The notes beneath the pieces were generated by a model. It was not told where the DNA came from. It made no database searches and saw only the letters and a list, made by a program, of their open reading frames with translations. Positions 677 through 58,733 of a stretch of 64,000 nucleotides of DNA are shown here, piece by piece. Origin of the DNA: a virus; IMG/VR virus record IMGVR_UViG_3300021091_000027, positions 1 to 64,000 of that record; one strand, given 5' to 3'. The translations under genes were made by a program, and so were the position numbers. Positions within the stretch are counted from its first letter, which is position 1, and every line of letters begins with the position of its first letter.

Positions 677-1522
677 ATGATTGACCCTGTTAGACAACTC
701 TTGGTTAAGATGGCCTATACCCCAAATCCTTTTAGGGGCAATTTATATAATTCTGCTTATAAAGCGGAAAGTCCAGAACAATACGGACAGCTGGTCAGCA
801 GAGATATACAGACCTACGGACATTTGGCCCCAGGATCTGATGAATACAATATGACTATGCAAGAAAAGGGATTTACACCTGAATATATGCAGGGAATCTC
901 TTCAGCAGGACAAAGGGTGCTGCGCGCTGCAAATGATCCTGAATTTGTAAGAGGAATGCAGCAAGGTACCGCAAATATATCAGATCTATACAAAGACTTT
1001 CAAGGCTCCTCAGGCATTGCGAAAGCGCTTGGCGGATGGAGTAACGTGGCGGCCTATGGATTACGTAATCCGATAGATTCTGCTCAAGCTCTTTACGGTG
1101 CGGGAAGAGATTGGCTTACAAATTCTGACCAATCTTCAAAGCAATTTGGAGATAAGTTAATGTCAAGCATAGATATGAATTCCCCCTTAGCTCGTGCTGC
1201 TAAATCAAGAGGGGCCACAACATATCTTAATTCTAAAATTCAAGATATTTTTAGCGGGCTGGGAGGATTTGGAAAAGGTGTTGGAGGCGGGCTTAGTTTC
1301 TTACTAGGTCTTTTGTCAAAAATACCTGGATACGACACACTAGCAAACAAGCTGGTTGATTGGAGTGGGGGATTTAAACCTGGAGGTCAAAGAGCTTTGC
1401 CGCATTCGCCTTTTGCAGTCAAGGCTGGATCAGTTAGATTTATACAAGGCAAGCCTTATTCTCACTATGCCGTCACTTCAACTCAGTGCGGTTCTGAGGT
1501 GCTGACATGGAACCGACAGTAA
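677..1522 (+). CDS. hypothetical, putative internal virion protein (leader ending KMA; Gly-rich hydrophobic segment)
   Basis: N-terminus MIDPVRQLLVKMA; contains GLGGFGKGVGGGLSFLLGLL. Confidence 0.6.
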   Translation: MIDPVRQLLVKMAYTPNPFRGNLYNSAYKAESPEQYGQLVSRDIQTYGHLAPGSDEYNMTMQEKGFTPEYMQGISSAGQRVLRAANDPEFVRGMQQGTANISDLYKDFQGSSGIAKALGGWSNVAAYGLRNPIDSAQALYGAGRDWLTNSDQSSKQFGDKLMSSIDMNSPLARAAKSRGATTYLNSKIQDIFSGLGGFGKGVGGGLSFLLGLLSKIPGYDTLANKLVDWSGGFKPGGQRALPHSPFAVKAGSVRFIQGKPYSHYAVTSTQCGSEVLTWNRQ

Positions 1523-3366
1523 CAACCGTGGGACAACTGCTGATAAATTCTGCTCTTCCAGAAGACAGCAGAGACTATGGAAGAATCTGGGACAAGCTCT
1601 CTATGAGGAAATTTCTAACGGAAATGGCCTCTAAATTGACTCCCGATAAGTACAGGGAGATGGTTCAACAACTTACTTTAATTGGCTTGAAGAGTGCAAG
1701 ACAATCGTCTTTATCTAGTTTTAGTCTTGAAAGCCTTAAGCCACCAAAGGTTAAACGCGATATAACAAATGTACTAAGACAGGAAGTACGTCAGATTGTT
1801 AGGTCTGTAAAGGATCCTGCCCAAAGAAATGAAGCTATAGTGGATGTAGCTTTAAAGTATCAAAAAACTTTGGCAGATAAGGTGTATCAGGAGTTACTAC
1901 AAAACGATAATCCATTTGCTATGCATGTATATGCCGGAGCACGTGGAAATAAAGATCAGCTGGCTTCTATGATTGGCAGCGATCTTCTCTATAGTGATAA
2001 TAAAGGTCGCCCCGTTCCGATTCCTGTGCTGAATTCATATTCAGAGGGTATGGATCCCGTGGAGTACTGGGCAGGATCATATGGCGCTAGAGCAGGAGCT
2101 ATTGATACTAAATTGGCTGTAGGCGATGCTGGGTATTTTGCTAAACGTCTTACTGCCTCTGCACATAGGCTTGTTGTTACGGATGAGGACATTGAAGACG
2201 GCCAAGGATTTATAGTAGAAGTAAACGATCCAGACAATATAGGTGGAGTGCTTGCTAGAGATGAGGGGCAGTTTAAGAAAGGTACGTATGTGGATGCTGC
2301 CGTACTAAAGGCCTTGAACGTATCTGGCAAGAAGAACATTATGATCTACTCTCCTATCGCAGCCGTAAGTGGAATTGGCGGACTGCCCAGACTGGCTGCC
2401 GGAATAAGAGAACACGGTAAGCTTGCAGAAATAGGTATGAATGTAGGGATTACTGCTGCTCAGGCAATTGCAGAACCTATAAGCCAGGGCATGTTGAATT
2501 CCAAGCACTCAGGGGGAGTATCAAAAGGCAAAACAAAAAGAACTGTAACTGGCTTTAACTATTTAAATCAACTCATAGAAGTTCCAAAAACTTTTACAGA
2601 TGGAGCTCCGGTAACTAAAGCGGACGGCATTGTTGGGAAAGTAGAATCTGCTCCTCAAGGCGGAAACTATGTTTATGTAAATAATGAAAAATACTATGTT
2701 CCAGTAGAGCAATCAGTATCCGTTAGACAAGGTCAAACGTTAGAAGCTGGAGATGCCTTATCCGACGGTATAATTAATCCAAAGGATATTGCTGAGCTTA
2801 AAGGAATTGGAGAGGCTCGCAGACACTTTGTAAAACAATTTAAATCTGCTTTACAGGAGAATGGACTGCCGGTTCATCGTAGAAATGTCGAAGTAGTTGC
2901 AAGAGGTTTGATTAATCAAGTAGAACTGACTGAGTCCGATGTGGTAGAGGGAGCATATCCAGAAGACATAGTGAGTTATGACTACCTAGCTTCAAGATAT
3001 AAACCAAGACAAGGCTTTCAAACTGGAAGTCCTTCTAAATATCTAAATCATTATCTAGAAAAACCAATTTTGCACTATTCTATTGGAACTCGTATAACTC
3101 CCACTGTAGCCAAAGAGCTAAAAGAAAATGGATTCTCAGATGTGATCGTTCATAAAAATCCTCCTCCATTTAAACCAACCATGACTAGAGCTATGATGTC
3201 ATTGCTCGGAGATAGAGATTGGATGGTTCAACTTGGAGGATTTAATCTTAAAAAGACCTTTTTGGATAATATACAGCGAGGATCTACCTCCCAGATACAC
3301 GGCACATCCTGGATTCCAGCTTTGGCTACTGGAGAAATCTCAAAGGGTCCAAAAGGCACCTACTGA
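1507..3366 (+). CDS. rpoC: DNA-directed RNA polymerase beta' subunit, C-terminal half (split subunit)
   Basis: Collinear matches to bacterial beta': TTVGQLLIN (TTVGR); AGARGN (SGARGS); bridge helix EGMDPVEYWAGSYGARAGAIDTKLAVGDAGYFAKRL; trigger loop GITAAQAIAEPISQGMLNSKHSGG; SBHM-like GQTLEAGDALSDG; VHRRNVEVVARGL. There is no NADFDGD motif. Confidence 0.92.
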   Translation: MEPTVTTVGQLLINSALPEDSRDYGRIWDKLSMRKFLTEMASKLTPDKYREMVQQLTLIGLKSARQSSLSSFSLESLKPPKVKRDITNVLRQEVRQIVRSVKDPAQRNEAIVDVALKYQKTLADKVYQELLQNDNPFAMHVYAGARGNKDQLASMIGSDLLYSDNKGRPVPIPVLNSYSEGMDPVEYWAGSYGARAGAIDTKLAVGDAGYFAKRLTASAHRLVVTDEDIEDGQGFIVEVNDPDNIGGVLARDEGQFKKGTYVDAAVLKALNVSGKKNIMIYSPIAAVSGIGGLPRLAAGIREHGKLAEIGMNVGITAAQAIAEPISQGMLNSKHSGGVSKGKTKRTVTGFNYLNQLIEVPKTFTDGAPVTKADGIVGKVESAPQGGNYVYVNNEKYYVPVEQSVSVRQGQTLEAGDALSDGIINPKDIAELKGIGEARRHFVKQFKSALQENGLPVHRRNVEVVARGLINQVELTESDVVEGAYPEDIVSYDYLASRYKPRQGFQTGSPSKYLNHYLEKPILHYSIGTRITPTVAKELKENGFSDVIVHKNPPPFKPTMTRAMMSLLGDRDWMVQLGGFNLKKTFLDNIQRGSTSQIHGTSWIPALATGEISKGPKGTY

Positions 3367-3373
3367 TATTTTT

Positions 3374-3382
3374 TGCTATAAT
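3374..3382 (+). promoter_or_regulatory. extended -10 promoter element TGCTATAAT
   Basis: Exact TGnTATAAT in the intergenic gap, 22 nt before ATG 3405. Confidence 0.55.
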
Positions 3383-3404
3383 CATAATATATGGAACTTA
3401 AACT

Positions 3405-3956
3405 ATGAAAAAAACTTTTTTAAAACTATCGGAACTCTCGGAAGAATATCGCCCTTTACTTTTAAGCGAACTCAGGCTTCAGAAACAAGCTGACTCGTCC
3501 TTCTTATCGAAGGCTTTAGAGAAAGGACAAGAATATGCTCCTGCGGTTGGATACGGCGCAGCCGGAGGCGCCTTGGCAGGAGTTCCTGTGGCCCTTCTGG
3601 CAAACGCTCTTTTTGGAAAAGACAAGAGTATGAGGGGCCATCTTCGCTCAGCACTTATGGGCAGTATTCTGGGAGGGGGAGTCGGAGCTTTAGGCGCTGG
3701 CGGCCTTCGTTACTATACCGAAGATCCTAGTGTATCCATTCCGTTGACCAGAGGACTTTCTAATATTAGCGGCGCTTCTGCGCGATTCCTCGATAGAATG
3801 GGTTTAGGTGATTTTAATAGGAAGGGCTTGACGGGTGAACTTACCCCAGAGGGCAAGTTCAAGGAGCCATTTAGGGGCTCAGACGAAACATACAACACCA
3901 CTCGTACCCAAGATGTAAGTGATTTTATACGGAAAAATTTTATTGCCCCCCACTAA
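3405..3956 (+). CDS. glycine-zipper protein with KxA leader, putative internal/ejected virion protein
   Basis: Leader ends LQKQAD, followed by two GxxxG-rich hydrophobic helices (GYGAAGGALAGVPVALLA; MGSILGGGVGALGAGGL). Confidence 0.65.
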   Translation: MKKTFLKLSELSEEYRPLLLSELRLQKQADSSFLSKALEKGQEYAPAVGYGAAGGALAGVPVALLANALFGKDKSMRGHLRSALMGSILGGGVGALGAGGLRYYTEDPSVSIPLTRGLSNISGASARFLDRMGLGDFNRKGLTGELTPEGKFKEPFRGSDETYNTTRTQDVSDFIRKNFIAPH

Positions 3957-3962
3957 GGGCTG

Positions 3963-3978
3963 GAATGTGATCACATTC
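3963..3978. promoter_or_regulatory. perfect 16-bp palindrome, putative operator
   Basis: GAATGTGATCACATTC is its own reverse complement and lies in the intergenic gap upstream of ORF 4059. Confidence 0.45.
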
Positions 3979-4058
3979 TGATACTTACGAACAACACTAG
4001 TAGTAGATTGGGACTAGTCTAAATAAGGCCCTTTCAATTTACAAAAAGGAATTAAAAC

Positions 4059-4637
4059 ATGGCTAATAGTAATCTTTTGACTGATTTAGAAAGCTATCGT
4101 AGCTTTGCAATGGCGTCTCACGTCTATCGCAACATCTCTGGCGCTAAGCGTTTCTTCGCTTATGTCGGCCCCAACGGTAAAGAACTTGAATCTGGCGCTA
4201 CTGAAGTTGTAGAACTGCGTGCGAGCGACTCCTTTGGAATTCTAGAGAAGCAGGCAATTGCTCGAGATCTTGCAGCTGGCAATATTCGTTATGGCAACAA
4301 TGGAGTGACCCTATATCACTTCCGTTTTGAAAAAGGCGCTACTGAACAAGCAGCAGCTGCAACCATGCCAGGTCGTGTAGTGGGCATGTTTGTTATGACT
4401 GAGGATGGCGCAGATGGCAACGAAACAATCTCTGCTACGGTTGCTGGCACGCCTATTGTTGCCGCTTCGCAAACTGCAGTTGCAAATAGCGCAACTTCAG
4501 GAAAAGCAAAAGCGGTTTCCTTGAGTACAACCGATGCGAACTTGAACACATTCCCTGGCATCATTTCTGTAGAGCTTAACAATGTAGGCCCAAATGACGC
4601 CATTACTGTTGTTGTCGCAATCGCTCACTTTGTTTGA
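4059..4637 (+). CDS. putative abundant virion structural protein (decoration-like)
   Basis: AAAGGA RBS, an Ala/Thr-rich beta-type C-terminal domain, and a downstream GAAA hairpin like those after the capsid and tube genes. Confidence 0.55.
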   Translation: MANSNLLTDLESYRSFAMASHVYRNISGAKRFFAYVGPNGKELESGATEVVELRASDSFGILEKQAIARDLAAGNIRYGNNGVTLYHFRFEKGATEQAAAATMPGRVVGMFVMTEDGADGNETISATVAGTPIVAASQTAVANSATSGKAKAVSLSTTDANLNTFPGIISVELNNVGPNDAITVVVAIAHFV

Positions 4638-4649
4638 CTTTAATCCTAC

Positions 4650-4679
4650 TTACCTGGCGGGGGAAACCCCGCCAGGTAA
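4650..4679 (+). terminator. 13-bp GAAA-loop hairpin (terminator or 3' stabiliser)
   Basis: ttacctggcgggg-gaaa-ccccgccaggtaa. Confidence 0.75.
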
Positions 4680-4698
4680 ATTCCCTTAAGAGATAACT

Positions 4699-6834
4699 AT
4701 GGCCAGAAAGAACATCATTAAGCTTGCAGATGACGTAACGTTTGAGCAAAACTTCTTTCAGTTGGCTTTTGCTTATATTCGTGACAAGATTCCTAATCTG
4801 CTTGACTACATGCTTGGTTTTGAGGTAGTTAACAAGAACGAGGATGGCACTCAAGCCGTTGGTCTTTTTAAGTTTGACATAAGCGGTAGAGAGCTTTTTG
4901 TACCGATCTTCTACAAGAACGGCGAGCTCAAAGGTGCTGAGTTGCTATATAATCAGAATCAGGACCAGTTTGTTCCAAATAAGGAAAACTGGGTCGATAC
5001 TATTCTAAATGCAAGACCGGAAGAGCTGGGGGTTCCATCCGAGTTAAACAAAGGTGAGATCATGGCAGGCATGCAGTCTGGCATGGATTTATCTAAGATA
5101 TACAACCCTACCCAAAATACTAAGTTTAGCATGGATAGAATGCAGAATTTGTCCAGTCAGTTTAACATTGACTTTAAAAAATTTCTCAAAACCGCTAATT
5201 GTAAGTTTGCTGAAATATATACCAAGACCTTGATGCACAATCCAGAACTTCATAAGGTGGCCATAGAAGCCTACGGCTCTGAACTTTATGAATGTCTAAA
5301 GGGATGTAAACAGTCTGAAACCATTGTATTAGACAACAACAAAGTTCCAGAAGTTGAAGTTATAGATGTACACGGCCCTCAGGATGTTTTGAACAGCATA
5401 ACTGATTCAGAAAAACAAGAACTCATTGAAGAAGGCGTAGTTCTACGAGACAATCGTAAAAACTTGGGAAGAATTTCTTACAAAATTGAAGGGCCCATGG
5501 CTCTGAATGCTTGTAATTGTGCAGGATTGTATAGCGTTTTAATGCCTGGTGGAAGTGTCGACAAGATGGCCGTAATTCCTTCTGCAGTATCTGGTTGCTC
5601 CTACACCTCTTCAAACTGTGTGGAAAGTGTCATTATTGCAGTAGGTGAGGGCAAGTCCGACAGGGTTGAATCATCGAAGGTTTTCTCTTTGGGTGCCTCC
5701 ATGCCAGGATCAGATTTCAAGGCATTTGTAGATAAGCTAAAGTCTGTTGATTCAGCAAAGACGGAAGCTCCAAGCAAAAACTACGATCTAAACAAAAAAG
5801 GAAATTTCAATGTTTTCGTAGAAGCTGACGGCAGCCAGGCTGCTGGACCATGCACTTTGGAGAATGCTGTGGTTAGCGGAGATGTGACTACGTATTCAGT
5901 GTTTGGGTTACCGTGCTGTGATAAAATTGTTGTGTCTCCTTCGTACAGACGCATGAAGATGTTTGACAGAACTTTGTACGTGCCCAAGACGGCAAAAGTA
6001 CATACTTTTTCTGATAACAGGTATCGCAGCAAAATTGAACTTGGCGGAGCTAGGGATATTGATGCCAGAATTAAAGGTTTGAATGATCAGGTCAAGGTAT
6101 CCAAGGATAGAATCGGATTCCGAGTTTTAATAAATGGAAAAACAGTATTCAAGGAAGCCTCGAAGAGAGATGCGTATGTTGGCTTAGTGGCTGGATTTGG
6201 AATGAGCATTTTAGAAGCCAAATCAGCACTTAAGTCTGCAGCTGCTCTTGAAGATGTAGTGCTGTATTTCGAGAAAAAGGCGCAACCATTCTTTGATCCA
6301 GGCATGGTTGCGACTCCAAATGTACCTTCGGCACCCATGGGCATAAATCCCACGTTGGGTGTTGCAGAGCAGTACCCACAAGCCGACACCGTCTCTGCTA
6401 CTTCTGGTCAGCCTGGAGATGTACTTAATCAAAGAATCATGGATAGCATTACTGGAATGGGTCAAGGCCAACAAGGTCTTAACCAACAGTCTGTAGACAG
6501 AATAATGCAGGCAGCACAATCCGGGGAGCAAAACGTATTTGACGTTGCTAATATCTCCGAACTTATAAATCGTGCTGACATAGACACTCCGCTCGATCAA
6601 TACATGGCAGATCTGCAAACAGCCCTTGATCGTTTAGGAAGAATATATTTCCTTATGCTATTCCATGGAGATAAGTTCTCTGAGCGCTTTAGCCAGGAAG
6701 ATTTGCCAAGCATGGAAGAGTCTGTTAGAAATACTTTCCTTAATCTTGGGGAACTAATCCTTAAGCTTAAGGAACGCAAGATCGAAGCAGACTCAGGTTC
6801 TGCAGTTGAAACCGATCTTAATCAGTTAGTGTAA
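4699..6834 (+). CDS. large hypothetical head-region protein (KxA-rich)
   Basis: 711-aa ORF with IKLAD, LKTAN, FKEAS, EKKAQ and a Q/G/P-rich linker before a helical C-terminus. Confidence 0.7.
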   Translation: MARKNIIKLADDVTFEQNFFQLAFAYIRDKIPNLLDYMLGFEVVNKNEDGTQAVGLFKFDISGRELFVPIFYKNGELKGAELLYNQNQDQFVPNKENWVDTILNARPEELGVPSELNKGEIMAGMQSGMDLSKIYNPTQNTKFSMDRMQNLSSQFNIDFKKFLKTANCKFAEIYTKTLMHNPELHKVAIEAYGSELYECLKGCKQSETIVLDNNKVPEVEVIDVHGPQDVLNSITDSEKQELIEEGVVLRDNRKNLGRISYKIEGPMALNACNCAGLYSVLMPGGSVDKMAVIPSAVSGCSYTSSNCVESVIIAVGEGKSDRVESSKVFSLGASMPGSDFKAFVDKLKSVDSAKTEAPSKNYDLNKKGNFNVFVEADGSQAAGPCTLENAVVSGDVTTYSVFGLPCCDKIVVSPSYRRMKMFDRTLYVPKTAKVHTFSDNRYRSKIELGGARDIDARIKGLNDQVKVSKDRIGFRVLINGKTVFKEASKRDAYVGLVAGFGMSILEAKSALKSAAALEDVVLYFEKKAQPFFDPGMVATPNVPSAPMGINPTLGVAEQYPQADTVSATSGQPGDVLNQRIMDSITGMGQGQQGLNQQSVDRIMQAAQSGEQNVFDVANISELINRADIDTPLDQYMADLQTALDRLGRIYFLMLFHGDKFSERFSQEDLPSMEESVRNTFLNLGELILKLKERKIEADSGSAVETDLNQLV

Positions 6835-7730
6835 TGCGCAAAGCCAAAGTATCTTTATCTGACAAATCTCCAGCACCTCGTAGACTGAAAAGTCCCGACT
6901 GGAGGTATAATTACGTTATAAAACTTTTAGATGAGTGGCGAGAACCTCGTAAAGACGATGATAAGTATGTAAAAGAGCTGTATCAATTACTGAAGACGAT
7001 CAGGCAAGACCCAGTTGATATAGTAGAAGTTTATAAAGATGCCAACCCGGATATTGCCGATGCCTTGACGCTGTATGAAAATGGTCCTTCGTACAGATTG
7101 GACGTAGATACCAGAATATTAGCGTCCTACTCGTATAAAGAAATTGCAGATATTGTAGGACATAACGAAACAGTAATTAAATACTATATCATGTGTTTTT
7201 TTGACGTGTTAGATAGCCTTACCAATTATGGCTATCTAAATCGCTGGGTCATAGAGCCTGTAATGCGTTCTGCCCCATTTAGCACTGAAGCTTTTTGGAA
7301 AAGAGTTGCTATATTTGGTGGCAAAGAAATGATTAAATCAATAGAAAAATGCTCTCAGCACCAAATGCAGAAATTATTTGAAACTCTTTTTGACAATTTA
7401 GTACTATCAAAAGGTATACAGGCTGCAAATGGAATTGTTCCAAATACTAGAAATGCCACTGAGCTCATAGGATTAGCCAAAGATAACATTAACGAACGCA
7501 AGAAAATTGAAGCTATTTTTGGGGGAGTCAAGGAGGACGATGCCTTTACTTCCCAAATTGTTAGCGTTATGTTAAAATCATTTACCTTTGGAATAATGAA
7601 TCAAGGATCCATGCCTGCAGATCCATTACGATCTGGAAATTACACAAATTCAGATATAGACAAATTACACTCTGATAATCCACCTCGCTTTATAGAAAAC
7701 CAAAATATCGGTAGAATAGAAGAACAATGA
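6834..7730 (+). CDS. hypothetical protein with possible helix-turn-helix
   Basis: SYKEIADIVGHNETVIKYY resembles an HTH. The gene is coupled to its neighbours (TAATG, ATGA). Confidence 0.55.
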   Translation: MRKAKVSLSDKSPAPRRLKSPDWRYNYVIKLLDEWREPRKDDDKYVKELYQLLKTIRQDPVDIVEVYKDANPDIADALTLYENGPSYRLDVDTRILASYSYKEIADIVGHNETVIKYYIMCFFDVLDSLTNYGYLNRWVIEPVMRSAPFSTEAFWKRVAIFGGKEMIKSIEKCSQHQMQKLFETLFDNLVLSKGIQAANGIVPNTRNATELIGLAKDNINERKKIEAIFGGVKEDDAFTSQIVSVMLKSFTFGIMNQGSMPADPLRSGNYTNSDIDKLHSDNPPRFIENQNIGRIEEQ

Positions 7731-9013
7731 CCGAATTAAAGCATATAACTCCTGAAAACAAAGAGCGCCTAGTTAATCTAATTAACAAGACTGCGTCTTT
7801 TGTTAACAGTGGAATGACTCCAACAGATGCTTTGGTTAAAGCTGCATCTAACGATGAATATCCTCCAGAATTTATAATGAGGGCTGCAGAGGCATACAAC
7901 GGTGCAGCACATCTGGCATATTTTAAATCAGCTTCAATTGAGGATAGAGGAAACTCTTTCTTATTGGCTGATGGCGGAAAAGCTCTGGAGCAGATTCTTA
8001 ATTCTGTAGACGCTAAAAATAAAGTTGCTGAAAGTGTGCCACTTGCATACGTATCCGAATCTCAAAATTTCTTTGACTCTCAGCCTATCGATGATAGTTT
8101 TTTGATGTCCTCAAAGGCTGCCTCTAATAAGCTTACATCTTTTAATGAGTTGCAGAAGGCTGCGACTGTATTAAGCAAAAATGAAAAGCTATCTATCGAG
8201 ATTCTGAGAAACAGATACAATGAGGCCTGTGAAGGACTTGCAAATAGCATCAAGTACTTTAAGGAAAAGGTAGCAGGGGTATCGTCCTACAGAAAAACTC
8301 ACTGGGCGAGAGAGACAATCGAAAAACACGGTAAAGATATTATTGACGTAGTTAGCTTGGCTACTGGAGTTACCGGCAAGGATTGCGAGAAGCTTGCCGA
8401 AGATAGAGTAGGATATTTTTCTTTAGGTATTGAAGAGTTAAACTCTCTTGACAATATAGTTAAAAACTATAATCAAACGGCACTGTTAAATTCCAAACTT
8501 GCACAAGCCGAGCACGATGCATATGTTAATAATTTAGAAAGAACTAGTTTGTTGAATAGTGCTGTAGGGATCAGAAAAAAAGCAGCATTGCCTATAAATC
8601 CAGAAGAAGCTGTAGGTAAGCTGGTCCCCGGATCAGAACAGACCAGGGAGGATATACAGCGTGGAGCTCTTGACAATCTGGCAGATCCAGACTTTGTAGA
8701 TCAAATTACTCGCATCGATAATGCTCTAAATATCCACAAGCTGATGAAGACGGATCCAATCGTTGGCGGACATTCTCCAAAGGAGATCGAAGAAGCCCTT
8801 GGCGAGATATACTCTATAGCACCAATTGCTTCAAAACAAACTCCTTTGCTTAGATCTATGCTTCGTCGTAGACTCGAGGCCGGAGATCAGATAGACGACT
8901 TCTCTTTGAATCAAATGCTAGCAATGGAAGAAAAGATGAGAGACCAGCGTAGAGAATATGCTGTTGTTCCAAGACTTACGGGTCTTGATAACCCACAAAG
9001 GACTGTAAGATGA
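7727..9013 (+). CDS. helical head-region protein, very KxA-rich (putative core/scaffold)
   Basis: NKTAS, VKAAS, FKSAS, NKVAE, SKAAS, QKAAT, EKVAG, EKLAE, SKLAQ, RKKAA. Confidence 0.6.
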   Translation: MTELKHITPENKERLVNLINKTASFVNSGMTPTDALVKAASNDEYPPEFIMRAAEAYNGAAHLAYFKSASIEDRGNSFLLADGGKALEQILNSVDAKNKVAESVPLAYVSESQNFFDSQPIDDSFLMSSKAASNKLTSFNELQKAATVLSKNEKLSIEILRNRYNEACEGLANSIKYFKEKVAGVSSYRKTHWARETIEKHGKDIIDVVSLATGVTGKDCEKLAEDRVGYFSLGIEELNSLDNIVKNYNQTALLNSKLAQAEHDAYVNNLERTSLLNSAVGIRKKAALPINPEEAVGKLVPGSEQTREDIQRGALDNLADPDFVDQITRIDNALNIHKLMKTDPIVGGHSPKEIEEALGEIYSIAPIASKQTPLLRSMLRRRLEAGDQIDDFSLNQMLAMEEKMRDQRREYAVVPRLTGLDNPQRTVR

Positions 9014-9948
9014 CTGATATTAATTCATTACTAATTAAGTTTGCTTCAGCAAGATCAAAAATTGCAGGTCCGTACCCAGTTTCAGCCGGAGATGCTAATA
9101 ACGACGGCCTTTATGATGAAGGCGCCAGGGAGCGCATTCCCATCGGTGAGATGAGCGCTAGAAACCTTTTGCCTTTTGGTATCCCAGCAGGGAATCAAGA
9201 GGGGTTTAATCTTGGGGAAATCCTAGGATTAGGTGGATTGGGATATCTTGGTAGTAAATTTCTTAGAGAAAGGTTTACTCCTGGCGGTTTATTTAGAAGA
9301 GACAGCTATAATCCACGTGAGGCTCAAAATATTGCTAATTTAAAGCCAGGTCCTGCTCAAAGTCTAATGGCCAGATATTTAAGCGGTCCTGCTGCAGGCA
9401 TATCAGTTACTCCTACTACGCCTGGTGGAACTGTTCGAGAATTCCCTTTAACTATAGAGGGAAAAAATGTCCCAGTAACTGCAGATGCCAGAGCAGCGGA
9501 GCTCATGAGGCCACCGCCACCACGACGACGTGGAGATTCCCCGGGTAACCCGGTTCGAACTCCAGGACTACCTGGCGGTGGAGGAATTACTCCAAGCACT
9601 CCACGTAGAAGATTCTTTGGCGTAAATGCACCAGGAGCAAAAGTAGAGATGGCTCTTCCCCCAAAGGCATTTGAGGGCACCATGGGCGCTCTTTCTCGTG
9701 TTGGCGGAGCACTGTCTGATAGTAGAATGCCGTCTCCTGCAATTCGACCAAGAACATTTCTTGGAGGTTTGAGAACTGTACTGCCTAGCAGATTGGGCGG
9801 AGTGCGTGGAGGCAGCTCCGGTCCGTTGGGACTGATCGCAGGACTTGCGCTTCCTGCGGCCTATAACGCATTTATGTCTAAACCGGAAAACTTCGATCCT
9901 TTATCATCTCAGCAAAATCTAAGCGGACAGCCCATAATTCCTAAATAA
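9010..9948 (+). CDS. Gly/Pro/Arg-rich protein with KxA leader, putative internal virion protein
   Basis: Leader MTDINSLLIKFASARSKIA; two Gly-rich hydrophobic segments. Confidence 0.6.
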   Translation: MTDINSLLIKFASARSKIAGPYPVSAGDANNDGLYDEGARERIPIGEMSARNLLPFGIPAGNQEGFNLGEILGLGGLGYLGSKFLRERFTPGGLFRRDSYNPREAQNIANLKPGPAQSLMARYLSGPAAGISVTPTTPGGTVREFPLTIEGKNVPVTADARAAELMRPPPPRRRGDSPGNPVRTPGLPGGGGITPSTPRRRFFGVNAPGAKVEMALPPKAFEGTMGALSRVGGALSDSRMPSPAIRPRTFLGGLRTVLPSRLGGVRGGSSGPLGLIAGLALPAAYNAFMSKPENFDPLSSQQNLSGQPIIPK

Positions 9949-9966
9949 CATAGTATAAAACAAGTT

Positions 9967-11322
9967 ATGTTTATCAAAGCATTTAGTCCTGATCACTTTA
10001 ATCTAGGTAGTGACGCCCCGTTTGAGATTCTTAGATTTTCCTCAAAGGGTCTTGACTCTGGTCAGGAGAAGCGCGCTAATATGTTTTCCAAGTTGATTGA
10101 AGGATATGTTCCCTCAAAAGACAAGACGGCAGTTCACACGATAGCCATGACTTCTTCAGAGAAATTTGGATTTAATAGAAATGGCGACGGCTGGAAACGT
10201 GCTAATCTAATAAGAGACCATCCCACTTTTATTTCTCATGCAAAGGTGTTTCGCCACCACAAGAATACTCCATTAGATTCCTCTTTTGGAGTTATTAAAG
10301 CTGCTACATTCAACGACGACATGGACAGAGTTGAATTGTTAATGGAGCTGGACAACTCTAAGTGCGCCGAAGAACTGTCTTTGCTTGAGAGAAATGGTAG
10401 CTATCCTGTTTCCATGGCTTGCAAGATTTCACATGACGTATGCTCCATATGCTCAAATAAAGCAAAAACTCCAAAAGAGTATTGTTGGCATGTGAAAGAA
10501 GCGCTTGGCAAGATTATGGATGATGGTAAGATTGTTGGAGTCGACAACCCTCAATCCATATTTTTTGACATATCTAGAGTTATTCGCCCAGCCGATAGAG
10601 TCGCTTATACTTTAAAGAAAGCCTCTACCGGTATCAGCGGAGGAGCCGCTCTTGCAGAAGAGCTAGGATATTCTTTAAATACTTTAGACACAATAGAATC
10701 TACTTTGACCTGCAACTATAAGTCTGCAGAGAAAAAAAGAAAAATATTAGAAAAAATATCAAAAATGGAAAAAAGAATTGATGGCATTGCTCAACCAGCT
10801 GTCATTGATTCTCAAGAGGAGGTAGAGGAGGCTGTAAAAAAGCTTTCTTCTTTTATTCCGATCTATATGGACTCGGTGATGAGAGGGCTTAGCGATAATG
10901 GTATTGTCCTACGTCCATCTGAGTTTTATACCCTTATGACTGGAAATTCTTTGGGACCTACCCAAGCAATAAATTTTAATAAATCTGCAGTTGCCGAAGG
11001 AATAAGCCAATTTTCTTCAGAGGATCTGATTTTTAGTTCATTATATGAGCCGGCAAGCATGAAGATATCTGGCAAGATTGCAAATTTATGTGATGCTATC
11101 AGGCCCTATCGTAGTGTAACTATTCCATTAATGGGTAGAATTATTGGTACACAAATTAGAAAATCAAATCCAATTAAGCTATCTTCTGATTTAGATTCAT
11201 GTTGGTCTAAAGAATATGTTCGATATCAGCTTGAAACATATAAGTCCATCAAGGCCGCATCTTCCGCAGGCGACATTGATGATTTAGTCTTTTGCGGAAT
11301 TTGCCAAAATACTGTAGAATAA
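9967..11322 (+). CDS. prohead (capsid maturation) serine protease, clan SH/HK97-like, with Zn-finger insert
   Basis: NRNGD, FRHH (candidate catalytic His), VSMAC (candidate catalytic Ser), then CSICSN...YCWH. It lies directly upstream of the scaffold, cement and capsid genes. Confidence 0.75.
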   Translation: MFIKAFSPDHFNLGSDAPFEILRFSSKGLDSGQEKRANMFSKLIEGYVPSKDKTAVHTIAMTSSEKFGFNRNGDGWKRANLIRDHPTFISHAKVFRHHKNTPLDSSFGVIKAATFNDDMDRVELLMELDNSKCAEELSLLERNGSYPVSMACKISHDVCSICSNKAKTPKEYCWHVKEALGKIMDDGKIVGVDNPQSIFFDISRVIRPADRVAYTLKKASTGISGGAALAEELGYSLNTLDTIESTLTCNYKSAEKKRKILEKISKMEKRIDGIAQPAVIDSQEEVEEAVKKLSSFIPIYMDSVMRGLSDNGIVLRPSEFYTLMTGNSLGPTQAINFNKSAVAEGISQFSSEDLIFSSLYEPASMKISGKIANLCDAIRPYRSVTIPLMGRIIGTQIRKSNPIKLSSDLDSCWSKEYVRYQLETYKSIKAASSAGDIDDLVFCGICQNTVE

Positions 11323-11349
11323 CTACCACACGAAAAGGACACCACTAAT

Positions 11350-12948
11350 ATGGCCACCAGTTTTGAACACCGAGCACTAGTTGAACAACTTCGTGCACTT
11401 ACTCAGAAGCGCGCCGAAAATCCTGGCGAGCAAATTTTAAATACTTCTCATCCCAGTGGAAGCAATTCAGCTGCTGATGATCACACTCGTCCAGCCGTTG
11501 TAGGTCATCGCTATTCTGAAAATACTTCTGATAACAAAGCGATGTATCCTGCCGGTACCGACAGTGACACCAAGCTTGAAGCTGGTAGTCAGCAGAAGGA
11601 CCCAGGCCACAACAAGGGCCTACACCCACGTCCATCGGGCGAGGCTCCTGAGGTTGAGCGTAAGTATAATTTAAACGAGCATAACGATCCGGGCTCTTCT
11701 CATCCAAGTGGCAAGGCTGCGCAAGAATTTATTTCCGAAGCAAAAACTCTTGCTGCAGAGTTGCGCAATCTGATCAAAGCTTCTGCTTCTGGCTCAGGGG
11801 CTGATACCTATGTCACCGGTAATCCTCCAGAGGAGGCTACCAACAGTAATGATGCTAATGCTAAGGGAACTGAGGCTTATCCTCAGAATGAAGAAAACGA
11901 TGGAAACATTGCTTTATCTAAGGAGCAAGGTAAAGATGCGGCTGCCGGTCTAGCCGATATCAGAGCTCGTGCGACTGCTGAGTACGTCGAGACATGTAAT
12001 TCTCTGAAAGCATCTGCTGCACTTGATGCAGAATCGTTTATTCAAACTATCACTGCTGTTATGGATAAGTTTGCGGCCCCCCATGTCCTACCTGCGATCG
12101 AGCAGCATCAGAAAGCTGCAGCTGTCGCCCAAATAGACGACCTAGCTTCTAAGATTGCAATGTACGATCTTCTTGCAGAAGCTGACAGTATGCCAAAGTT
12201 TGCTGAAATGATGGAAGGCAAGAAGAAGGACAACAAGAAGCCTGATGCTGACGGCGACGGCGTTCCTGATTGGGCAGATAAAAAAGAAGGCCCAGATGCG
12301 GAAAAGAAGGAAGCTGCAAAGTTGGCAACTCTTCTCAAAAAGGTCGCAGAGATGTATGTTTCTGAAGATGCCTCCAACGACGACTCTGATGACAGCTCGG
12401 AAAAATCAAAGGATAAGCCTAAGCCTGCAAATACACAAGAAAAGAAAGAGGCCTCCCGTAAAGGGGGTACCTTTCGAAAGCGCTCCGAAGAAGAAGAAGA
12501 GATGATGGAGGACGAGGAGGGCGAAGATTCGCCCTCTGAAGAAGAGGTCTCCGATGACGAGGAGGCTGCAGCAGAAGAGGTCCTTGCAAACATGGCCTCA
12601 ATGCCAAGTGGTGGTGGAGCGCCAGACGAAATGGCTAAGATGATGGATCCCGGGGCAATGGCAGAGGGCGCGGAACAAGCTCCTCTTTCACCAGAGGAGG
12701 AGGCTGCTCTTATGGCACTCATGCAGCAGGAAGGAATGAAGGAGTCTGATGTAAAGGCATTTGCCACTACATCTGCCCTCATCGCTTCTGGCAAATTGGA
12801 TACCAATAAGCTGTCTCAGGCTCAAGTCGCTTACCTTCAATCTTGCGATGGTGCAGTAAAGCGCGCTGGAGCTAAGTTCCAGACTCTTCGCTCTGCCAGT
12901 CGTCTACGTAATGAAATTAAATCAATTTACAAAGGAATCCAGTCGTGA
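11350..12948 (+). CDS. putative capsid scaffolding protein
   Basis: Acidic, disordered and helical composition; many KxA sites; AAAAGGA RBS; located between the protease and capsid genes. Confidence 0.6.
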   Translation: MATSFEHRALVEQLRALTQKRAENPGEQILNTSHPSGSNSAADDHTRPAVVGHRYSENTSDNKAMYPAGTDSDTKLEAGSQQKDPGHNKGLHPRPSGEAPEVERKYNLNEHNDPGSSHPSGKAAQEFISEAKTLAAELRNLIKASASGSGADTYVTGNPPEEATNSNDANAKGTEAYPQNEENDGNIALSKEQGKDAAAGLADIRARATAEYVETCNSLKASAALDAESFIQTITAVMDKFAAPHVLPAIEQHQKAAAVAQIDDLASKIAMYDLLAEADSMPKFAEMMEGKKKDNKKPDADGDGVPDWADKKEGPDAEKKEAAKLATLLKKVAEMYVSEDASNDDSDDSSEKSKDKPKPANTQEKKEASRKGGTFRKRSEEEEEMMEDEEGEDSPSEEEVSDDEEAAAEEVLANMASMPSGGGAPDEMAKMMDPGAMAEGAEQAPLSPEEEAALMALMQQEGMKESDVKAFATTSALIASGKLDTNKLSQAQVAYLQSCDGAVKRAGAKFQTLRSASRLRNEIKSIYKGIQS

Positions 12949-13352
12949 AAAATATCAACCTTCCAGTAAGGGCAATTGAAAAACTTGCCTCTTTTATGGA
13001 GCGAGTTCCTCAGGTGGTTGCTGCCATTTCGAACGAAACTCCAAATTCGCAATATGCGGCCGCTGCTAATGTTTCTGTTTATCGTAAAGAAGCAGAAGCT
13101 TGTACCGCAGATCTCGTCAAGCACGCTGGTTTAGATCCAGCTCGTCAATCTGAATTCATGAATTTCATCATGACCCCAGAGGGCTCGCTCAAGACCATCG
13201 GCTCCCTTACTAGCAAAATCGCTAGCCTTCAGACAGAAGTTGCCCAGGCTCGTAATCTTGCAGTAGGCGGTCCTTCTTCTGTAACAGCAAAAGCTGCAGG
13301 TAGCTCTGTATCTCAGGCCGCAAATGTCTGGTGCGAAGCTCTCCTCGGCTAA
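12945..13352 (+). CDS. small scaffold/core-like protein
   Basis: GTG start overlapping the upstream stop; EKLAS, VKHAG, SKIAS, AKAAG; short coiled coil. Confidence 0.55.
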   Translation: MKNINLPVRAIEKLASFMERVPQVVAAISNETPNSQYAAAANVSVYRKEAEACTADLVKHAGLDPARQSEFMNFIMTPEGSLKTIGSLTSKIASLQTEVAQARNLAVGGPSSVTAKAAGSSVSQAANVWCEALLG

Positions 13353-13410
13353 TTGAAAGTAATATATATTTACACTAAACTATAGCAAGTCTAAAACTTG
13401 GAGATAAAAA

Positions 13411-14049
13411 ATGGCTTACAAAACTCTTACTCAAATGACAAAGAATATGCTCGAACCAGTCCGTGGATGGTGGGACGAGCGTCAACTCTCACGCGTTTGC
13501 CCCATCCACAATGGCGATACCTCCACGATCACTGCACTTGATGCCGTAGTCGCAGGTGCCGTCGGCCACCTCAATTCCAACAACGAGTTTGTTCTCGGCG
13601 GCGGCGTAAAGCACAAGATGCCACTATTTGCTCGTGGCGGCGGCGCTGATAATGACGCTGTTCGCTTCGAAGGCAACCTAGCTAGTCAGCGTGCAACTGC
13701 CACTCAGGGCACCGCTGCTCAGGCTGGCCCATCTGCCACGGTCTTCCGTGAAGTTGGAATTTCCTGCCTTGTCGGTACTGGCGCTTATGAGCTCGGCACC
13801 ACCGAGTATGCCGGCTCTGTAGCTGCTGGCGATCTTCTCATGGCTAGCACCACATCCGTAGGAAAGATTGCAACGTTTGCTCCTAGCACTTCAGGTGCTG
13901 CAAACTCTCTTTACACCGCCACTACCTCCGCCGCTGCCCCCATCAACAATAACCAGGTCGTCGGGATTGCAACGTCTGCTGCTGGCGTAAAGAATCAGTA
14001 CGGCGTAGCAATGCTTTACTTCTACGTTAACTGGTGGCCAGCACTCTAA
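13411..14049 (+). CDS. capsid cement/decoration protein
   Basis: Immediately precedes the capsid gene; GAYELGTTEY..VAAGDLL..VVGIAT pattern; strong codon bias. Confidence 0.6.
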   Translation: MAYKTLTQMTKNMLEPVRGWWDERQLSRVCPIHNGDTSTITALDAVVAGAVGHLNSNNEFVLGGGVKHKMPLFARGGGADNDAVRFEGNLASQRATATQGTAAQAGPSATVFREVGISCLVGTGAYELGTTEYAGSVAAGDLLMASTTSVGKIATFAPSTSGAANSLYTATTSAAAPINNNQVVGIATSAAGVKNQYGVAMLYFYVNWWPAL

Positions 14050-14092
14050 TTTAAAACTTATAAAGAAACTAAACTAAACAGGAGTAATACAG

Positions 14093-15070
14093 ATGGCATT
14101 AGAACATCTCACAGATATGGAAAAAAGAGCGAACCAAGTTGTTCGTCAGCACCTTGATCAAATGGAGTTTAACCCCGAGTCCACCATCAAGGTCTCTCGG
14201 GCTACTTCAGACTACATCCGCATGAAGCTGCGTGAAGAGGGTTTCCTTCGTAAGATCCTTCCAGCACAGACAATTACCGGAGATGATCTCACCAAGCAAG
14301 TTTCCACCGACAAACCCTCCAAGGTTGTCGAACTAGAGCCAGATTCGCCTGGCGCTATGTCGATCCCCTTCGGCGAGTTTCCAAGCAGCACTTATATCTA
14401 CGGTAAGCGTTGGCTCGTAACCTTTAGCCGCATTGCTACTCCAATGTTCAGTAAGGACGTTGCAGAGCTGCACGACTATGATCTCGACATTCGTCAGGTC
14501 ATTAGCGATAATGCGCTCAAGGATCTACAGGCTGAGGAGGACGGCAAGTTCATTCAGACGATCAACTCGCTCCTCTCCAATGACACCATGAATTCTGAGC
14601 AGAATCTGCCCTACGGCCCAGGTGGTGCAAACATTAAACTTTGGAGGAATCTCTCTGGCGGTCTCACTCGTGAGAACGTCGTTGAAGCCAAGAAGCTAAT
14701 GATGGCTGCAAATGCTCGCCTTCGTCCTCAGACTGCCCTTGTCAACCAGAAGACTGCTCTTGAGTTCGAGAAGTGGACTCGTGAAGAGGTCGGCGGCGAT
14801 ATGGCGCAAGGTATCCTTGTTAACGGTTGGGCCAGCGAAGCCAACAAGTGGTGTGCCCTTAACTGGATCACCACCATCAAGGACGATCTCATCAAGGACA
14901 ACAGCATGTTCCTTTTTGCCGCACCAGAGTTCCTTGGCCGCCTTTATTTCCTTGAGGACACCACAATGTTCGTCAAGCGTGAAGGCCCAATGCTCAGCTG
15001 GTACGCATATGAAATGCTCGGCGGCGGCATTGCCAACGTTGCAGCATGCAGCAGAGTTGACTTTACATAA
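14093..15070 (+). CDS. major capsid protein (HK97-fold)
   Basis: 325 aa; CAGGAG RBS; strongest codon bias in the window; KLREEGFLRKILP..LQAEEDGKF..YAYEMLGGGIAN pattern; position after protease, scaffold and cement; followed by a hairpin. Confidence 0.8.
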   Translation: MALEHLTDMEKRANQVVRQHLDQMEFNPESTIKVSRATSDYIRMKLREEGFLRKILPAQTITGDDLTKQVSTDKPSKVVELEPDSPGAMSIPFGEFPSSTYIYGKRWLVTFSRIATPMFSKDVAELHDYDLDIRQVISDNALKDLQAEEDGKFIQTINSLLSNDTMNSEQNLPYGPGGANIKLWRNLSGGLTRENVVEAKKLMMAANARLRPQTALVNQKTALEFEKWTREEVGGDMAQGILVNGWASEANKWCALNWITTIKDDLIKDNSMFLFAAPEFLGRLYFLEDTTMFVKREGPMLSWYAYEMLGGGIANVAACSRVDFT

Positions 15071-15087
15071 TTTAAAGATAGGATGCG

Positions 15088-15115
15088 CCTACTGGGGGAG
15101 AAATCCCCCAGTAGG
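15088..15115 (+). terminator. 12-bp GAAA-loop hairpin after capsid gene
   Basis: cctactggggga-gaaa-tcccccagtagg. Confidence 0.75.
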
Positions 15116-15134
15116 AATTTAATAAGATACAACT

Positions 15135-15710
15135 ATGGTTTCAGACGGCCCAACAGATCCTTCTTCTCCAGAATTCATCGAGCAGATGTACAAGCACCTG
15201 GTCTCCATTGGTGCAGATAAGCACGATCCAGAGGGCTTCAAGAAAGACTACGAAAAGGCTTTAGCAGAGGCTAAGGCAAAACACTCCAAAAAGGAATCCC
15301 CTATGTCAGACACTGATAACTCTGAAGCAAAAAAGATCGCAGCTCTTCAGGCACTTATTGCCACCAACTACATTCCAGAATTTGTAAAGACTTGTTTCGA
15401 CAGTGGCCTTGAGTTTGAATCTGAGTCAGACTTAGCTCACGCCTTACAAATCAACGGTAAGTTTGCTGCACTTGTCTCTTCTGGTGTATCTGTTGATGCC
15501 TTGATTGACACCATTGTCTCCAACCTGAATGTCAAGCATGCTAGCGAAGGCCAGATTAAGTTGTCCTTAGCCAGCATTAATCATGCCTTAGATTCTGGCC
15601 TAGAGTCTGCCGGCGTCCCTGTTGATTCAATGAATAAGGCGGCAGCGGCAGATATAACAAACGATGTATCTGATGAGGAGCTCCTTACGTTTCTTAACGC
15701 TGTCAGCTAA
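15135..15710 (+). CDS. hypothetical head-region protein (KxA-containing)
   Basis: KKIAA, GKFAA, VKHAS, NKAAA. Confidence 0.6.
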   Translation: MVSDGPTDPSSPEFIEQMYKHLVSIGADKHDPEGFKKDYEKALAEAKAKHSKKESPMSDTDNSEAKKIAALQALIATNYIPEFVKTCFDSGLEFESESDLAHALQINGKFAALVSSGVSVDALIDTIVSNLNVKHASEGQIKLSLASINHALDSGLESAGVPVDSMNKAAAADITNDVSDEELLTFLNAVS

Positions 15711-35988: not shown

Positions 35989-37011
35989 ATGGACTTATTT
36001 CCAACCATACCTAAACCTTCAAAGACTCTAAGTCTGTTTAATGGATTTGAGCAACCCGCTTTCTACGATTCAATGGAGGCTATTAAGAAGCCTGCAGAGC
36101 CTCCTTTAGCTCCAGAGCTTCCAGAAGAGCCCCTAAAGGCTCCGGAGCCCCCAGAGCCCCTAGAGCCCATATTCCCCAAACTTGCCCCAACAGGCACTGA
36201 CGGACTTCCTAAATCCCCGCAGATTGCAACAACTACTTTCCCCGCTGCCAGCGCCTCTCCGATTCCTCAAGCTCCGGTAAAAAAACAAACCTTAGAGGAA
36301 ATGCACTCTGATTGGGCTAAAAATAAAAAAACTGAAAATATGCAAAAGATTCTTGATGAACTTTCATCAGATATTGATAAGGCAATTTACGCTTATTCTG
36401 GTCTCAATGCCGGTCCTGCTGTAAAGAGTAAGGCCAAAGTATTGGCAGCAAAAGCTATAAAAACTTATGACCCTAAATCTGGAGCATCTTTAAAAAGTTG
36501 GGTATACACCCAGTTACAGCCTTTAAGCAGATACTCTAGAGATCTTAATCCTTCTCCTATGCCAGAGCGTGCCTATCAGCAGCTAAGTTCCATTAAGAAG
36601 CATGAGGCTGAGTTCTACGAAAATAAAGGCCGTCCGCCTTCAGATGCAGAATTAGCAGATTTAACTGGAATGTCAGTAAAGCAGATTCAAAAAGTAAAGG
36701 AAATGGAAAAGAAGACTTACAGCGAAGGACACACTGCCTACTCCGGAAGCACCCCTGCCACCTCTCAAGAAATTACTGCAACCGAAAATACTAATTTTAA
36801 AAAGAACGTACTTGACACTTTATACAGTTCGCTAACTCCTCAAGAGCAGTTAATCTTAGAACATAAATTAGGCTATAATGGTAAAAAAATACTTTCTAAT
36901 AATGAAATATCTAAAAAACTTGGAATAAGCCCAGGAAGAGTTAGTCAACTTACTTCAGAGCTATCTAAAAAACTGGAGGAGTACGTAGAGTTAAATAAAG
37001 GCAGCATGTGA
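35989..37011 (+). CDS. sigma-70 family RNA polymerase sigma factor (FliA/SigF-like regions 2-4) with Pro-rich N-extension
   Basis: Region 2 KAIKTYDPKSGASLKSWV; region 3 GRPPSDAELADLTGMS; region 4 LTPQEQLIL..SNNEISKKLGISPGRVSQL. Confidence 0.88.
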   Translation: MDLFPTIPKPSKTLSLFNGFEQPAFYDSMEAIKKPAEPPLAPELPEEPLKAPEPPEPLEPIFPKLAPTGTDGLPKSPQIATTTFPAASASPIPQAPVKKQTLEEMHSDWAKNKKTENMQKILDELSSDIDKAIYAYSGLNAGPAVKSKAKVLAAKAIKTYDPKSGASLKSWVYTQLQPLSRYSRDLNPSPMPERAYQQLSSIKKHEAEFYENKGRPPSDAELADLTGMSVKQIQKVKEMEKKTYSEGHTAYSGSTPATSQEITATENTNFKKNVLDTLYSSLTPQEQLILEHKLGYNGKKILSNNEISKKLGISPGRVSQLTSELSKKLEEYVELNKGSM

Positions 37012-57476: not shown

Positions 57477-57487
57477 TAGATTTCAGT

Positions 57488-58300: not shown

Positions 58301-58314
58301 AACTTATTTTTCTT

Positions 58315-58731: not shown

Positions 58732-58733
58732 AA

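Follow-up and report, generated by a model that had tools for sequence, protein, structure and literature searches.

A Lys-x-Ala Motif Concentrated in Phage Head Proteins as a Probable Cleavage Code of the Prohead Protease

The tripeptide Lys-x-Ala (K-x-A, or K.A as a residue pair) is strongly over-represented in a set of head-type proteins encoded by an uncultured large phage, and we propose that it is the P3-P1 cleavage code of the clade of prohead proteases represented by the product of gene 9967. The DNA analyzed here, called the window throughout, comprises 64,000 nucleotides (positions 1 to 64,000 of IMG/VR virus record IMGVR_UViG_3300021091_000027) and is the structural half of a 111-kb contig with 112 open reading frames (ORFs), which we name by their lower window coordinate. 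On comparative sequence evidence we regard the proposal, in which the cut itself is predicted, as probable. A similar degree of confidence attaches to the rule in its full form, [F/L/M]-[E/V/I]-K-[Q/T/V]-A↓[S/A/E], where the arrow marks the scissile bond, Lys occupies P3, P2 is free and Ala is P1. Complete relatives of this phage measure 174-183 kb, and contigs of the clade about 150-230 kb. The nearest isolates by tblastn are Vibrio phage D69, Salmonella phage Arash and Bacillus phage G, followed by cluster-C mycobacteriophages and other actinophages. Similarity to the isolates that BLASTP can detect is confined to the capsid protein, the protease, a 4699-like protein and a fragment of RNA polymerase (RNAP) beta'. 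The window, D69 and Arash share a gene order that runs from RNAP beta' through the 4699-like gene, the protease and an acidic scaffold-like gene to the capsid gene.

Counts of K-x-A in each of the 59 translated window genes were compared with 1000 shuffles of the same protein, and all residue pairs at gaps 0-2 were scanned with expectations conditioned on each protein's own composition. Seven proteins together hold 70 K.A pairs where 24.1 are expected (p 2e-14), an approximately threefold excess over chance, and the remaining 52 window proteins hold 69 against 77 expected. In the all-pair scan K.A is the best gap-1 pair window-wide, and in 7727, 9967 and 58734 taken separately it is the single best pair. 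The seven genes are listed below with their strand, their length in amino acids (aa), their K-x-A counts (expected numbers in parentheses) and the evidence for each entry.

4699-6834, plus strand: 711-aa virion protein, ortholog of Arash gp218, 11 K-x-A (3.8); counts, BLASTP.
7727-9013, plus strand: 428-aa helical protein of no known family, 11 K-x-A (3.0); counts, conservation.
9967-11322, plus strand: prohead protease precursor, 451 aa, 11 K-x-A (2.7); PHROG match, fold, conservation.
11350-12948, plus strand: 532-aa acidic, low-complexity, scaffold-like protein encoded directly after the protease, 13 K-x-A (7.1); counts, gene position across clades.
12945-13352, plus strand: 135-aa protein, 5 K-x-A (1.1), all K-x-A-[S/E/G] (0.5); counts.
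15135-15710, plus strand: 191-aa protein, 4 K-x-A (2.0), all K-x-A-[A/S] (1.0, p 0.014), a marginal member; counts.
58734-60080, minus strand: 448-aa protein of no known family, 15 K-x-A (4.3, p 4e-5), the strongest case; counts.

Across the 112 contig ORFs, only 4699, 7727, 9967, 11350, 12945 and 58734 have p<0.05 for K-x-A, and five of the six or seven enriched ORFs adjoin the protease gene. The residue after the motif is also distinctive: S, A, E, N, G, T or D stands at P1' in 54 of the 70 sites (background, 49%), and in 36 of 68 K.A sites of other proteins. A previous sequence-only reading of this DNA had reported about 10 copies of K-x-A-[SAEGND] each in 7727, 11350 and 58734 and several each in 4699, 9967, 12945 and 15135. 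The counts are 8, 10 and 11 (1.3, 3.8 and 1.8 expected) for the first group and 6, 7, 5 and 4 (1.6, 1.1, 0.5 and 1.0 expected) for the second, and the enrichment in these seven head-type proteins survives the shuffled controls that the same reading had proposed. Its impression that the motif is sparser in tail proteins was correct relative to the head set; in the downstream tail block of 36 genes, however, K-x-A is at baseline (43 versus 51.5 expected, p 0.13), and we dropped the idea that tail proteins avoid the motif since the deficit is not significant.

The excess follows a strict i,i+2 pattern. In the seven-protein set, KA, K..A, A.K, R.A, K.S, K.G, K.T and K.V are at or below expectation, which rules out a bias of composition, helix or local clustering. 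The site codons are mixed (for Lys, 37 AAG and 33 AAA; for Ala, all four codons) and 58734 lies on the opposite strand, so that a DNA-level motif is ruled out as well; BLASTP found no similarity between the K-x-A-rich proteins, excluding paralogy or repeats. When the identical pair scan was applied to phage T4 genes 17-24 as a control, the top pair was L.E in scaffold gp22 (10 versus 3.3), I.E emerged in gp68, and no K.A signal was found in those genes. The method therefore recovers the experimentally known rule of the T4 protease gp21.

The product of 9967 appears to be organized as a disordered leader (residues 1-37), a catalytic domain (approximately 38-219) and a helical C-terminal extension (250-451). 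In an AlphaFold model built with 26 homologs, residues 1-39 are disordered, with predicted local distance difference test (pLDDT) values <50; residues 40-211 are folded (pLDDT 70-93), and a low-pLDDT linker (212-249) leads to the helical domain. By sequence, the protein weakly matches PHROG 18299, annotated as 'head maturation protease' (E 5.6e-6); Pfam gave no family at E <= 0.1, a profile of the 26 homologs reached no PDB chain at E <= 10, and hhalign did not align it to T4 gp21 (probability 0.2). By structure, VIA-align superimposed residues 50-221 on T4 gp21 (PDB 5jbl) with Z 10.5 and a root-mean-square deviation of 2.9 Å over 135 aa; the proteases of varicella-zoster virus, pseudorabies virus, herpes simplex virus, human cytomegalovirus, Kaposi's sarcoma-associated herpesvirus and Epstein-Barr virus scored Z 5-7.1, and unrelated MCE-domain chains Z <= 5. 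A Foldseek search with the whole 451-aa model returned 5jbl at E 0.19 only. Because there is a fold match without a sequence link, 9967 is, as judged from the model, a separate sequence family within the fold class of T4 gp21 and herpesvirus assemblin. Its assemblin-type beta-barrel is that of MEROPS clan SH (S21, S77, S78), and its gene, like others of the clan, lies in the head module ahead of the scaffold-like and major capsid genes; no sequence profile of S77 (T4 gp21), S78 (HK97 gp4) or S21 (assemblin) is matched significantly. H98 and S149 are invariant, and H57 nearly so, in the 26 homologs (down to 26% identity), which makes H98 and S149 candidate catalytic residues. Just past S149, C159, C162 and C173 are likewise invariant in the 26 homologs, and the window protein adds H175 (10441-10491, residues 159-175). 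This cluster could be a zinc site inserted in the gp21-like fold; we know of no comparable zinc site in T4 gp21.

Two K-x-A sites stand at the borders of the catalytic domain, one in each of the disordered segments that bracket it, and this is the layout expected for a self-trimming enzyme.

10069-10077, plus strand: K35-R-A37, predicted N-terminal autocleavage site; K35 is invariant, and the site lies in the disordered segment 1-39.
10615-10623, plus strand: K217-K-A219 followed by Ser, predicted C-terminal autocleavage site, in the low-pLDDT linker 212-249.

Both arrangements are widespread among 109 protease homologs: a K-x-A is found 15-45 aa ahead of an NRNGD motif in 107 (98%), and within 14 aa past a conserved PADR motif in 95 (87%). 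In a set of 62 distant protease homologs, K.A occurs 823 times against 232 expected. C-terminal self-trimming has been reported for SPN3US gp245 and phiKZ gp175 (PMC5694885).

The association between the motif and the protease gene extends well beyond the window. From 80 IMG/VR loci we derived 31 clusters, between which the proteases are <60% identical. Among the genes neighboring the protease in these 31 clades, K.A ranks top of 1200 pairs (1091 versus 545, z 23), the runner-up being L.K at z 10. The ratio of observed to expected sites is 3.1 in the protease itself, 2.4 at position +1, 2.55 at +2 and 2.4 at -2, and it settles at about 0.9 from +8 onward; the +1 gene is K-x-A-rich at p<0.01 in 13 of the 31 clades. 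Cultured phages repeat the pattern. The K-x-A-rich ORFs are 18373, 19863 (the protease), 21271, 22566 and a distal 36131 in D69; gp220, gp222 (protease), gp223 and gp225 in Arash; and gp19 (protease), gp21 and gp7 in phage G. Gene order is kept between the window and the isolates, and the K-x-A-rich genes are positional counterparts. In cluster-C mycobacteriophages the protease domain forms the N-terminus of a 1408-aa protein (locus L004, 11839-16065; gp103 of mycobacteriophage I3). The I3 gp103 fusion holds 18 K-x-A against 8.1 expected and looks like a protease-scaffold polyprotein under the same K-x-A rule.

A logo of 1428 pooled sites does not extend beyond P5-P2', the span that a substrate strand lying in a protease would be expected to cover. 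It shows F, L or M at P5, E, V or I at P4, Lys at P3, Q, T or V at P2 (with G, D and N disfavored), Ala at P1, S, A or E at P1' (with L, V and W disfavored) and D, A or E at P2'. Ser at P1' is the most enriched residue there (2.9x), and no position requires Glu. In orthologs of 50-93% identity the motif Lys is conserved in 87.5% and the motif Ala in 88% of comparisons, against 70% and 66.5% for other Lys and Ala residues; the middle residue, at 71%, is at background. By these alignments, selection is shown to act on the Lys and the Ala of the motif and not on x. Conservation in homologs had been put forward by the sequence-only reading as a check on its proposal, and these figures bear it out, as do the position-conserved sites of the protease and capsid protein. 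The 57 enriched ORFs of the 31 clades also share an architecture: the first site falls at a median of about residue 23, and a site-free C-terminal stretch takes up 19% of the length (9% expected, p 3e-6).

The major capsid protein supplies a site whose position can be followed through evolution.

14093-15070, plus strand: major capsid protein, 325 aa, with K11-R-A13; BLASTP matches Arash gp226, 'major capsid protein' (3e-31), and also D69 and phage G gp27.

Each of the 19 capsid orthologs identified in the 31 clades holds a K-x-A within its N-terminal 40-50 residues. The Ala lies exactly 11 residues before an anchor, [KRQ][LMVI]R[EQ], in 19 of the 21 capsid proteins in which the anchor is recognizable, and in the window's nearest clade a K-V-A lies at distance 10. 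The MEKRAN sequence at residues 11-13, which had been singled out as the capsid site from the window alone, does not occupy this position: relatives conserve residues 33-35 instead, where the window protein reads K-V-S. K11-R-A13 is common to the window and nearest-clade capsid proteins, and either Ser is tolerated at P1 in the window capsid or the cut has moved to K11-R-A13 in this lineage.

Short N-terminal leaders that end in the motif were another element of the sequence-only reading, and as a class they are in excess: 19 of the 112 ORFs have a K-x-A-[small] in their first 40 residues (9.1 +/- 2.9 expected, p 0.002), with 8 of the 19 in the run 3405-14093 and 4 in 56203-58734. The same calculation means that about 9 of the 112 ORFs have such a leader by chance, so that a lone leader site, as in 677, 3405, 56203 and others, does not rise above chance and is no reliable prediction; the suggestion that the motif alone would predict the packaged proteome fails for this reason. 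Head targeting, which the same reading put forward as a candidate role, is likewise more than the present evidence supports. The LLVKMA of 677, a single site followed by Tyr, is indistinguishable from chance. The candidate short-leader genes are as follows.

9010-9948, plus strand: 312-aa Gly/Pro/Arg-rich protein, candidate short-leader substrate, with IKFA↓S at residues 10-12 and SKIA↓G at 17-19.
56203-58731, minus strand: four small genes adjoining 58734, candidate short-leader substrates, not individually significant.

The two N-terminal sites of 9010 compare with 0.4 expected (p 0.05). In the minus-strand group the leaders include NLKKA↓D at residues 10-12 of 56203 and VKSA↓G at 15-17 of 58315. 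The genes 57488 and 58315 open with an identical MIKVANNL (K-V-A↓N at residues 3-5; 58280-58300 and 58711-58731, minus strand), and their bodies are unrelated. Long Gly-rich hydrophobic runs of GxxxG-like character lie behind the N-terminal K-x-A leaders of 56203-56778 (minus strand), 58315-58731 (minus strand) and 9010-9948 (plus strand); judging from these runs, the three proteins could be membrane-active ejected proteins.

Assembled into a pathway, these observations would have 9967 release its catalytic domain through cuts at K35-R-A37 and K217-K-A219 and trim the N-terminus of the major capsid protein inside the prohead. The protease would chop the scaffold-like and internal head proteins 11350, 12945, 7727, 58734 and 15135, along with residues 1-528 of 4699, into peptides about 10-50 residues long, and a few small proteins would lose their short N-terminal leaders to it. 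The site-free C-terminal domains of 4699 (183 aa), 7727 (141 aa) and 58734 (76 aa) would stay in the head. We infer both the cutting at K-x-A and the fate of the fragments; the P3-x-P1↓ rule of the T4, phiKZ/SPN3US and herpesvirus proteases is the analogy on which we place the scissile bond after Ala. The sequence-only reading, too, had 9967 cutting K-x-A↓X, fragmenting scaffolds and removing propeptides. The reading as a whole is supported in part; this central proposal has all the comparative evidence on its side, namely the protease fold, the conserved putative autocleavage sites that flank the catalytic domain, the position-invariant capsid site, selection on Lys and Ala and not on x, and a family-wide enrichment centered on the protease gene. 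The cleavage keeps the status of a prediction.

Several observations weigh against this interpretation. The enzyme itself belongs to no Pfam protease family and is unalignable to T4 gp21 by sequence, and the catalytic role of H98 and S149 is a candidate one read from conservation. K-x-A also occurs inside the folded catalytic domain, at residues 53, 77, 111, 132 and 177, where cutting would destroy the enzyme unless the sites are buried or used for late self-inactivation. On the substrate side, the window capsid has K33-V-S35 (14189-14197) at the conserved site of its relatives, the phage G capsid protein has no N-terminal K-x-A, and the protease fusion of Rhodococcus phage E3 is not significantly enriched (7 versus 4.5). 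The position of the scissile bond is taken entirely from analogy, and a mass-spectrometry paper on Arash virions (PMC10585845) is silent on the protease and on processing.

These points leave room for readings in which K-x-A is bound, cut differently or without function. A docking or targeting motif that is bound and not cut, tethering proteins to the scaffold, the C-terminal extension of the protease, the inner capsid wall or DNA, would also fit the enrichment, the conservation and the restriction to head genes, and the K-x-A-rich Arash proteins gp220, gp222, gp223 and gp225 were all detected in virions and so are not fully removed. Detected fragments are, however, compatible with cleavage. 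The small or acidic preference at P1' and P2' is typical of cleavage, as is the location of the sites, which lie in disordered linkers right at the edges of the protease domain and ahead of the capsid fold, and the i,i+2 geometry is the P3/P1 rule of every characterized relative; we therefore hold a pure binding function to be improbable. Still less probable, in our estimate, is a cut by a different enzyme or at a different bond, such as one after Lys (K↓x-A) made by a trypsin-like activity for which Ala would be a P2' determinant. In favor of this idea, the scissile bond cannot be located by sequence statistics. Arg is no substitute for Lys (R.A, 9 versus 11.0), however, unlike in the S1 pockets of trypsin-type enzymes; the enrichment peaks at the gene for an assemblin-fold protease and its neighbors in 31 clades; and the T4, phiKZ/SPN3US and herpesvirus proteases all cut after the final X of an X-x-X motif. 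That K-x-A has no specific function and arises from composition, the periodicity of helices, common descent or repeats we consider extremely unlikely. The enriched proteins are indeed Lys- and Ala-rich and mostly helical, but each expectation took the composition of the protein into account, no excess is seen for KA, K..A or A.K, and there is no paralogy; moreover, the signal recurs in unalignable proteins of 31 clades, with extra constraint on Lys and Ala from which x is exempt.

The proposed cleavage at K-x-A has its nearest parallels in the proteases of T4, giant phages and herpesviruses. T4 gp21 (MEROPS S77), the best structural match of 9967, cuts at (L/I)-x-Glu↓ in gp22, gp67, gp68, gp23, gp24 and internal proteins, and the capsid targeting sequences of T4 are short N-terminal leaders ending in the motif, as here. 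In both phages the protease gene lies between head-core genes and the capsid gene, and an X-x-X motif is packed into the scaffold and small core proteins and is also found in the capsid propeptide. The systems differ in that P1 is Ala and not Glu and P3 is Lys and not Leu or Ile; in the size of the protease, which at 451 aa has a 230-aa helical C-terminal extension and the invariant cluster C159, C162 and C173; and in the capsid propeptide, which is predicted to be short here (about 13-35 aa). To our knowledge, all experimentally characterized T4-type and giant-phage head proteases cut after Glu. Among the giant-phage enzymes, phiKZ gp175 and SPN3US gp245 cut at (S/A/G)-x-Glu↓ or A-x-Glu↓ (PMC5694885, PMC10052503). 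Long N-terminal propeptides with several motif copies ahead of mature C-terminal parts, and C-terminal self-trimming of the protease, are features of phiKZ and SPN3US that we predict for the window phage. These phages differ from ours in the cut after Glu as opposed to a putative cut after Ala, in their larger genomes and in substrates without homology to those described here. A further likeness may be a virion multisubunit RNAP. The C-terminal half of RNAP beta' is encoded in the head module at 1507-3366 (Pfam RNA_pol_Rpb1_5, E 2.7e-25; K-x-A 4 versus 3.5, not enriched), and Arash virions contain RNAP beta and beta' (PMC10585845), which together suggest that the window phage also packages a multisubunit RNAP in its virion.

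At P1 and P1' the closer parallel lies with the herpesviruses. Assemblin (MEROPS S21) has release and maturation sites of the form (V/L/I)-x-Ala↓Ser, and it resembles 9967 in fold class (Z 5-7), in Ala at P1, in Ser as the most enriched P1' residue and in the fusion of the protease to a C-terminal scaffold-like extension that is freed by self-cleavage (predicted here). In contrast to assemblin, P3 is Lys and not aliphatic, an aliphatic or aromatic preference sits at P5, dozens of sites are spread over many substrates as opposed to two sites, and the structural match is weaker than that to T4 gp21.

If true, the Lys-x-Ala rule would add a new specificity to this fold, nearer to herpesvirus assemblin at P1/P1'; we found no published K-x-A rule in the literature on phage Arash, phage G, prohead-protease cleavage motifs or mycobacteriophage capsid processing. 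Annotators could use it to recognize the protease, now 'hypothetical' or 'structural protein' in Arash and D69. The rule would also draw attention to scaffold proteins and to internal or ejected head proteins without detectable homologs, and predict mature protein ends for cryo-electron microscopy and proteomics. Since it extends over at least 31 environmental clades and cultured phages of Salmonella, Vibrio, Bacillus/Lysinibacillus and Mycobacterium, it is testable at the bench now. More tentatively, we speculate that throughout a large, widespread clade of 150-500-kb phages including Arash, D69, phage G and the cluster-C mycobacteriophages, a head protease cuts proteins after Ala and before Ser, much as in herpesviruses, in a reaction gated by Lys at P3 and a hydrophobic residue at P5. 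Selection would act on site density, with positions turning over at constant number, and K-x-A, as a portable and evolvable tag, would both gain a protein entry to the prohead and set how it is fragmented. For hundreds of uncultured genomes it would then be possible to identify the processed head cargo by sequence alone.

The predicted substrates differ in how sites are arranged, and neither PHROGs nor Pfam gave a family for any of them. In 4699 all K-x-A lie within residues 1-528, and the site-free C-terminal 183 aa contain the only region that the protein conserves with Arash and D69; its ortholog gp218 was detected in Arash virions (PMC10585845). The sites of 7727 are spaced 14-41 aa apart within residues 1-287 and are followed by a site-free C-terminus of 141 aa. 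Across orthologs as distant as 51% identity, seven of them are invariant (K21/A23, K38/A40, K67/A69, K130/A132, K181/A183, K222/A224 and K257/A259), and the positional counterparts in D69 and Arash are likewise K-x-A-rich. We predict 7727 to be an internal head protein whose long propeptide is cut at multiple points. Several sites coincide with the ends of helices in its structural model, which is all helical and of low confidence (pLDDT 56) and is not relied on. Protein 12945 is predicted to be cut into pieces of 11-35 aa. Although 15135 is a marginal member by count, its four sites are all fully conserved in 7 orthologs, against 65% for its other Lys and Ala residues. Orthologs of 58734 at 71% and 61% identity have 16 and 14 sites, with some positions gained or lost, and the protein, with its 76-aa site-free C-terminus, is predicted to be a head-internal substrate encoded apart from the head module. 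Were 4699, 7727 and 58734 cut at every site, the pieces outside their mature C-termini would mostly measure <50 aa. The distal gene of D69 (locus L001, 36131-36982) holds 10 K-x-A against 2.3 expected and lies on the far side of the tail genes, some 16 kb past the protease; this placement mirrors that of 58734, although no sequence similarity between the two is detectable.

Two other proteins of the window merit mention. A 340-aa protein encoded within the tail/baseplate block (35989-37011) matches the sigma-factor family PHROG 351 (E 4.8e-17). At the beginning of the window, a 147-aa protein rich in Ala, Gly, Met and Pro (5-448) over-represents M.G (11 versus 3.1) and G..P (12 versus 3.8), which suggests that it holds a short internal repeat.

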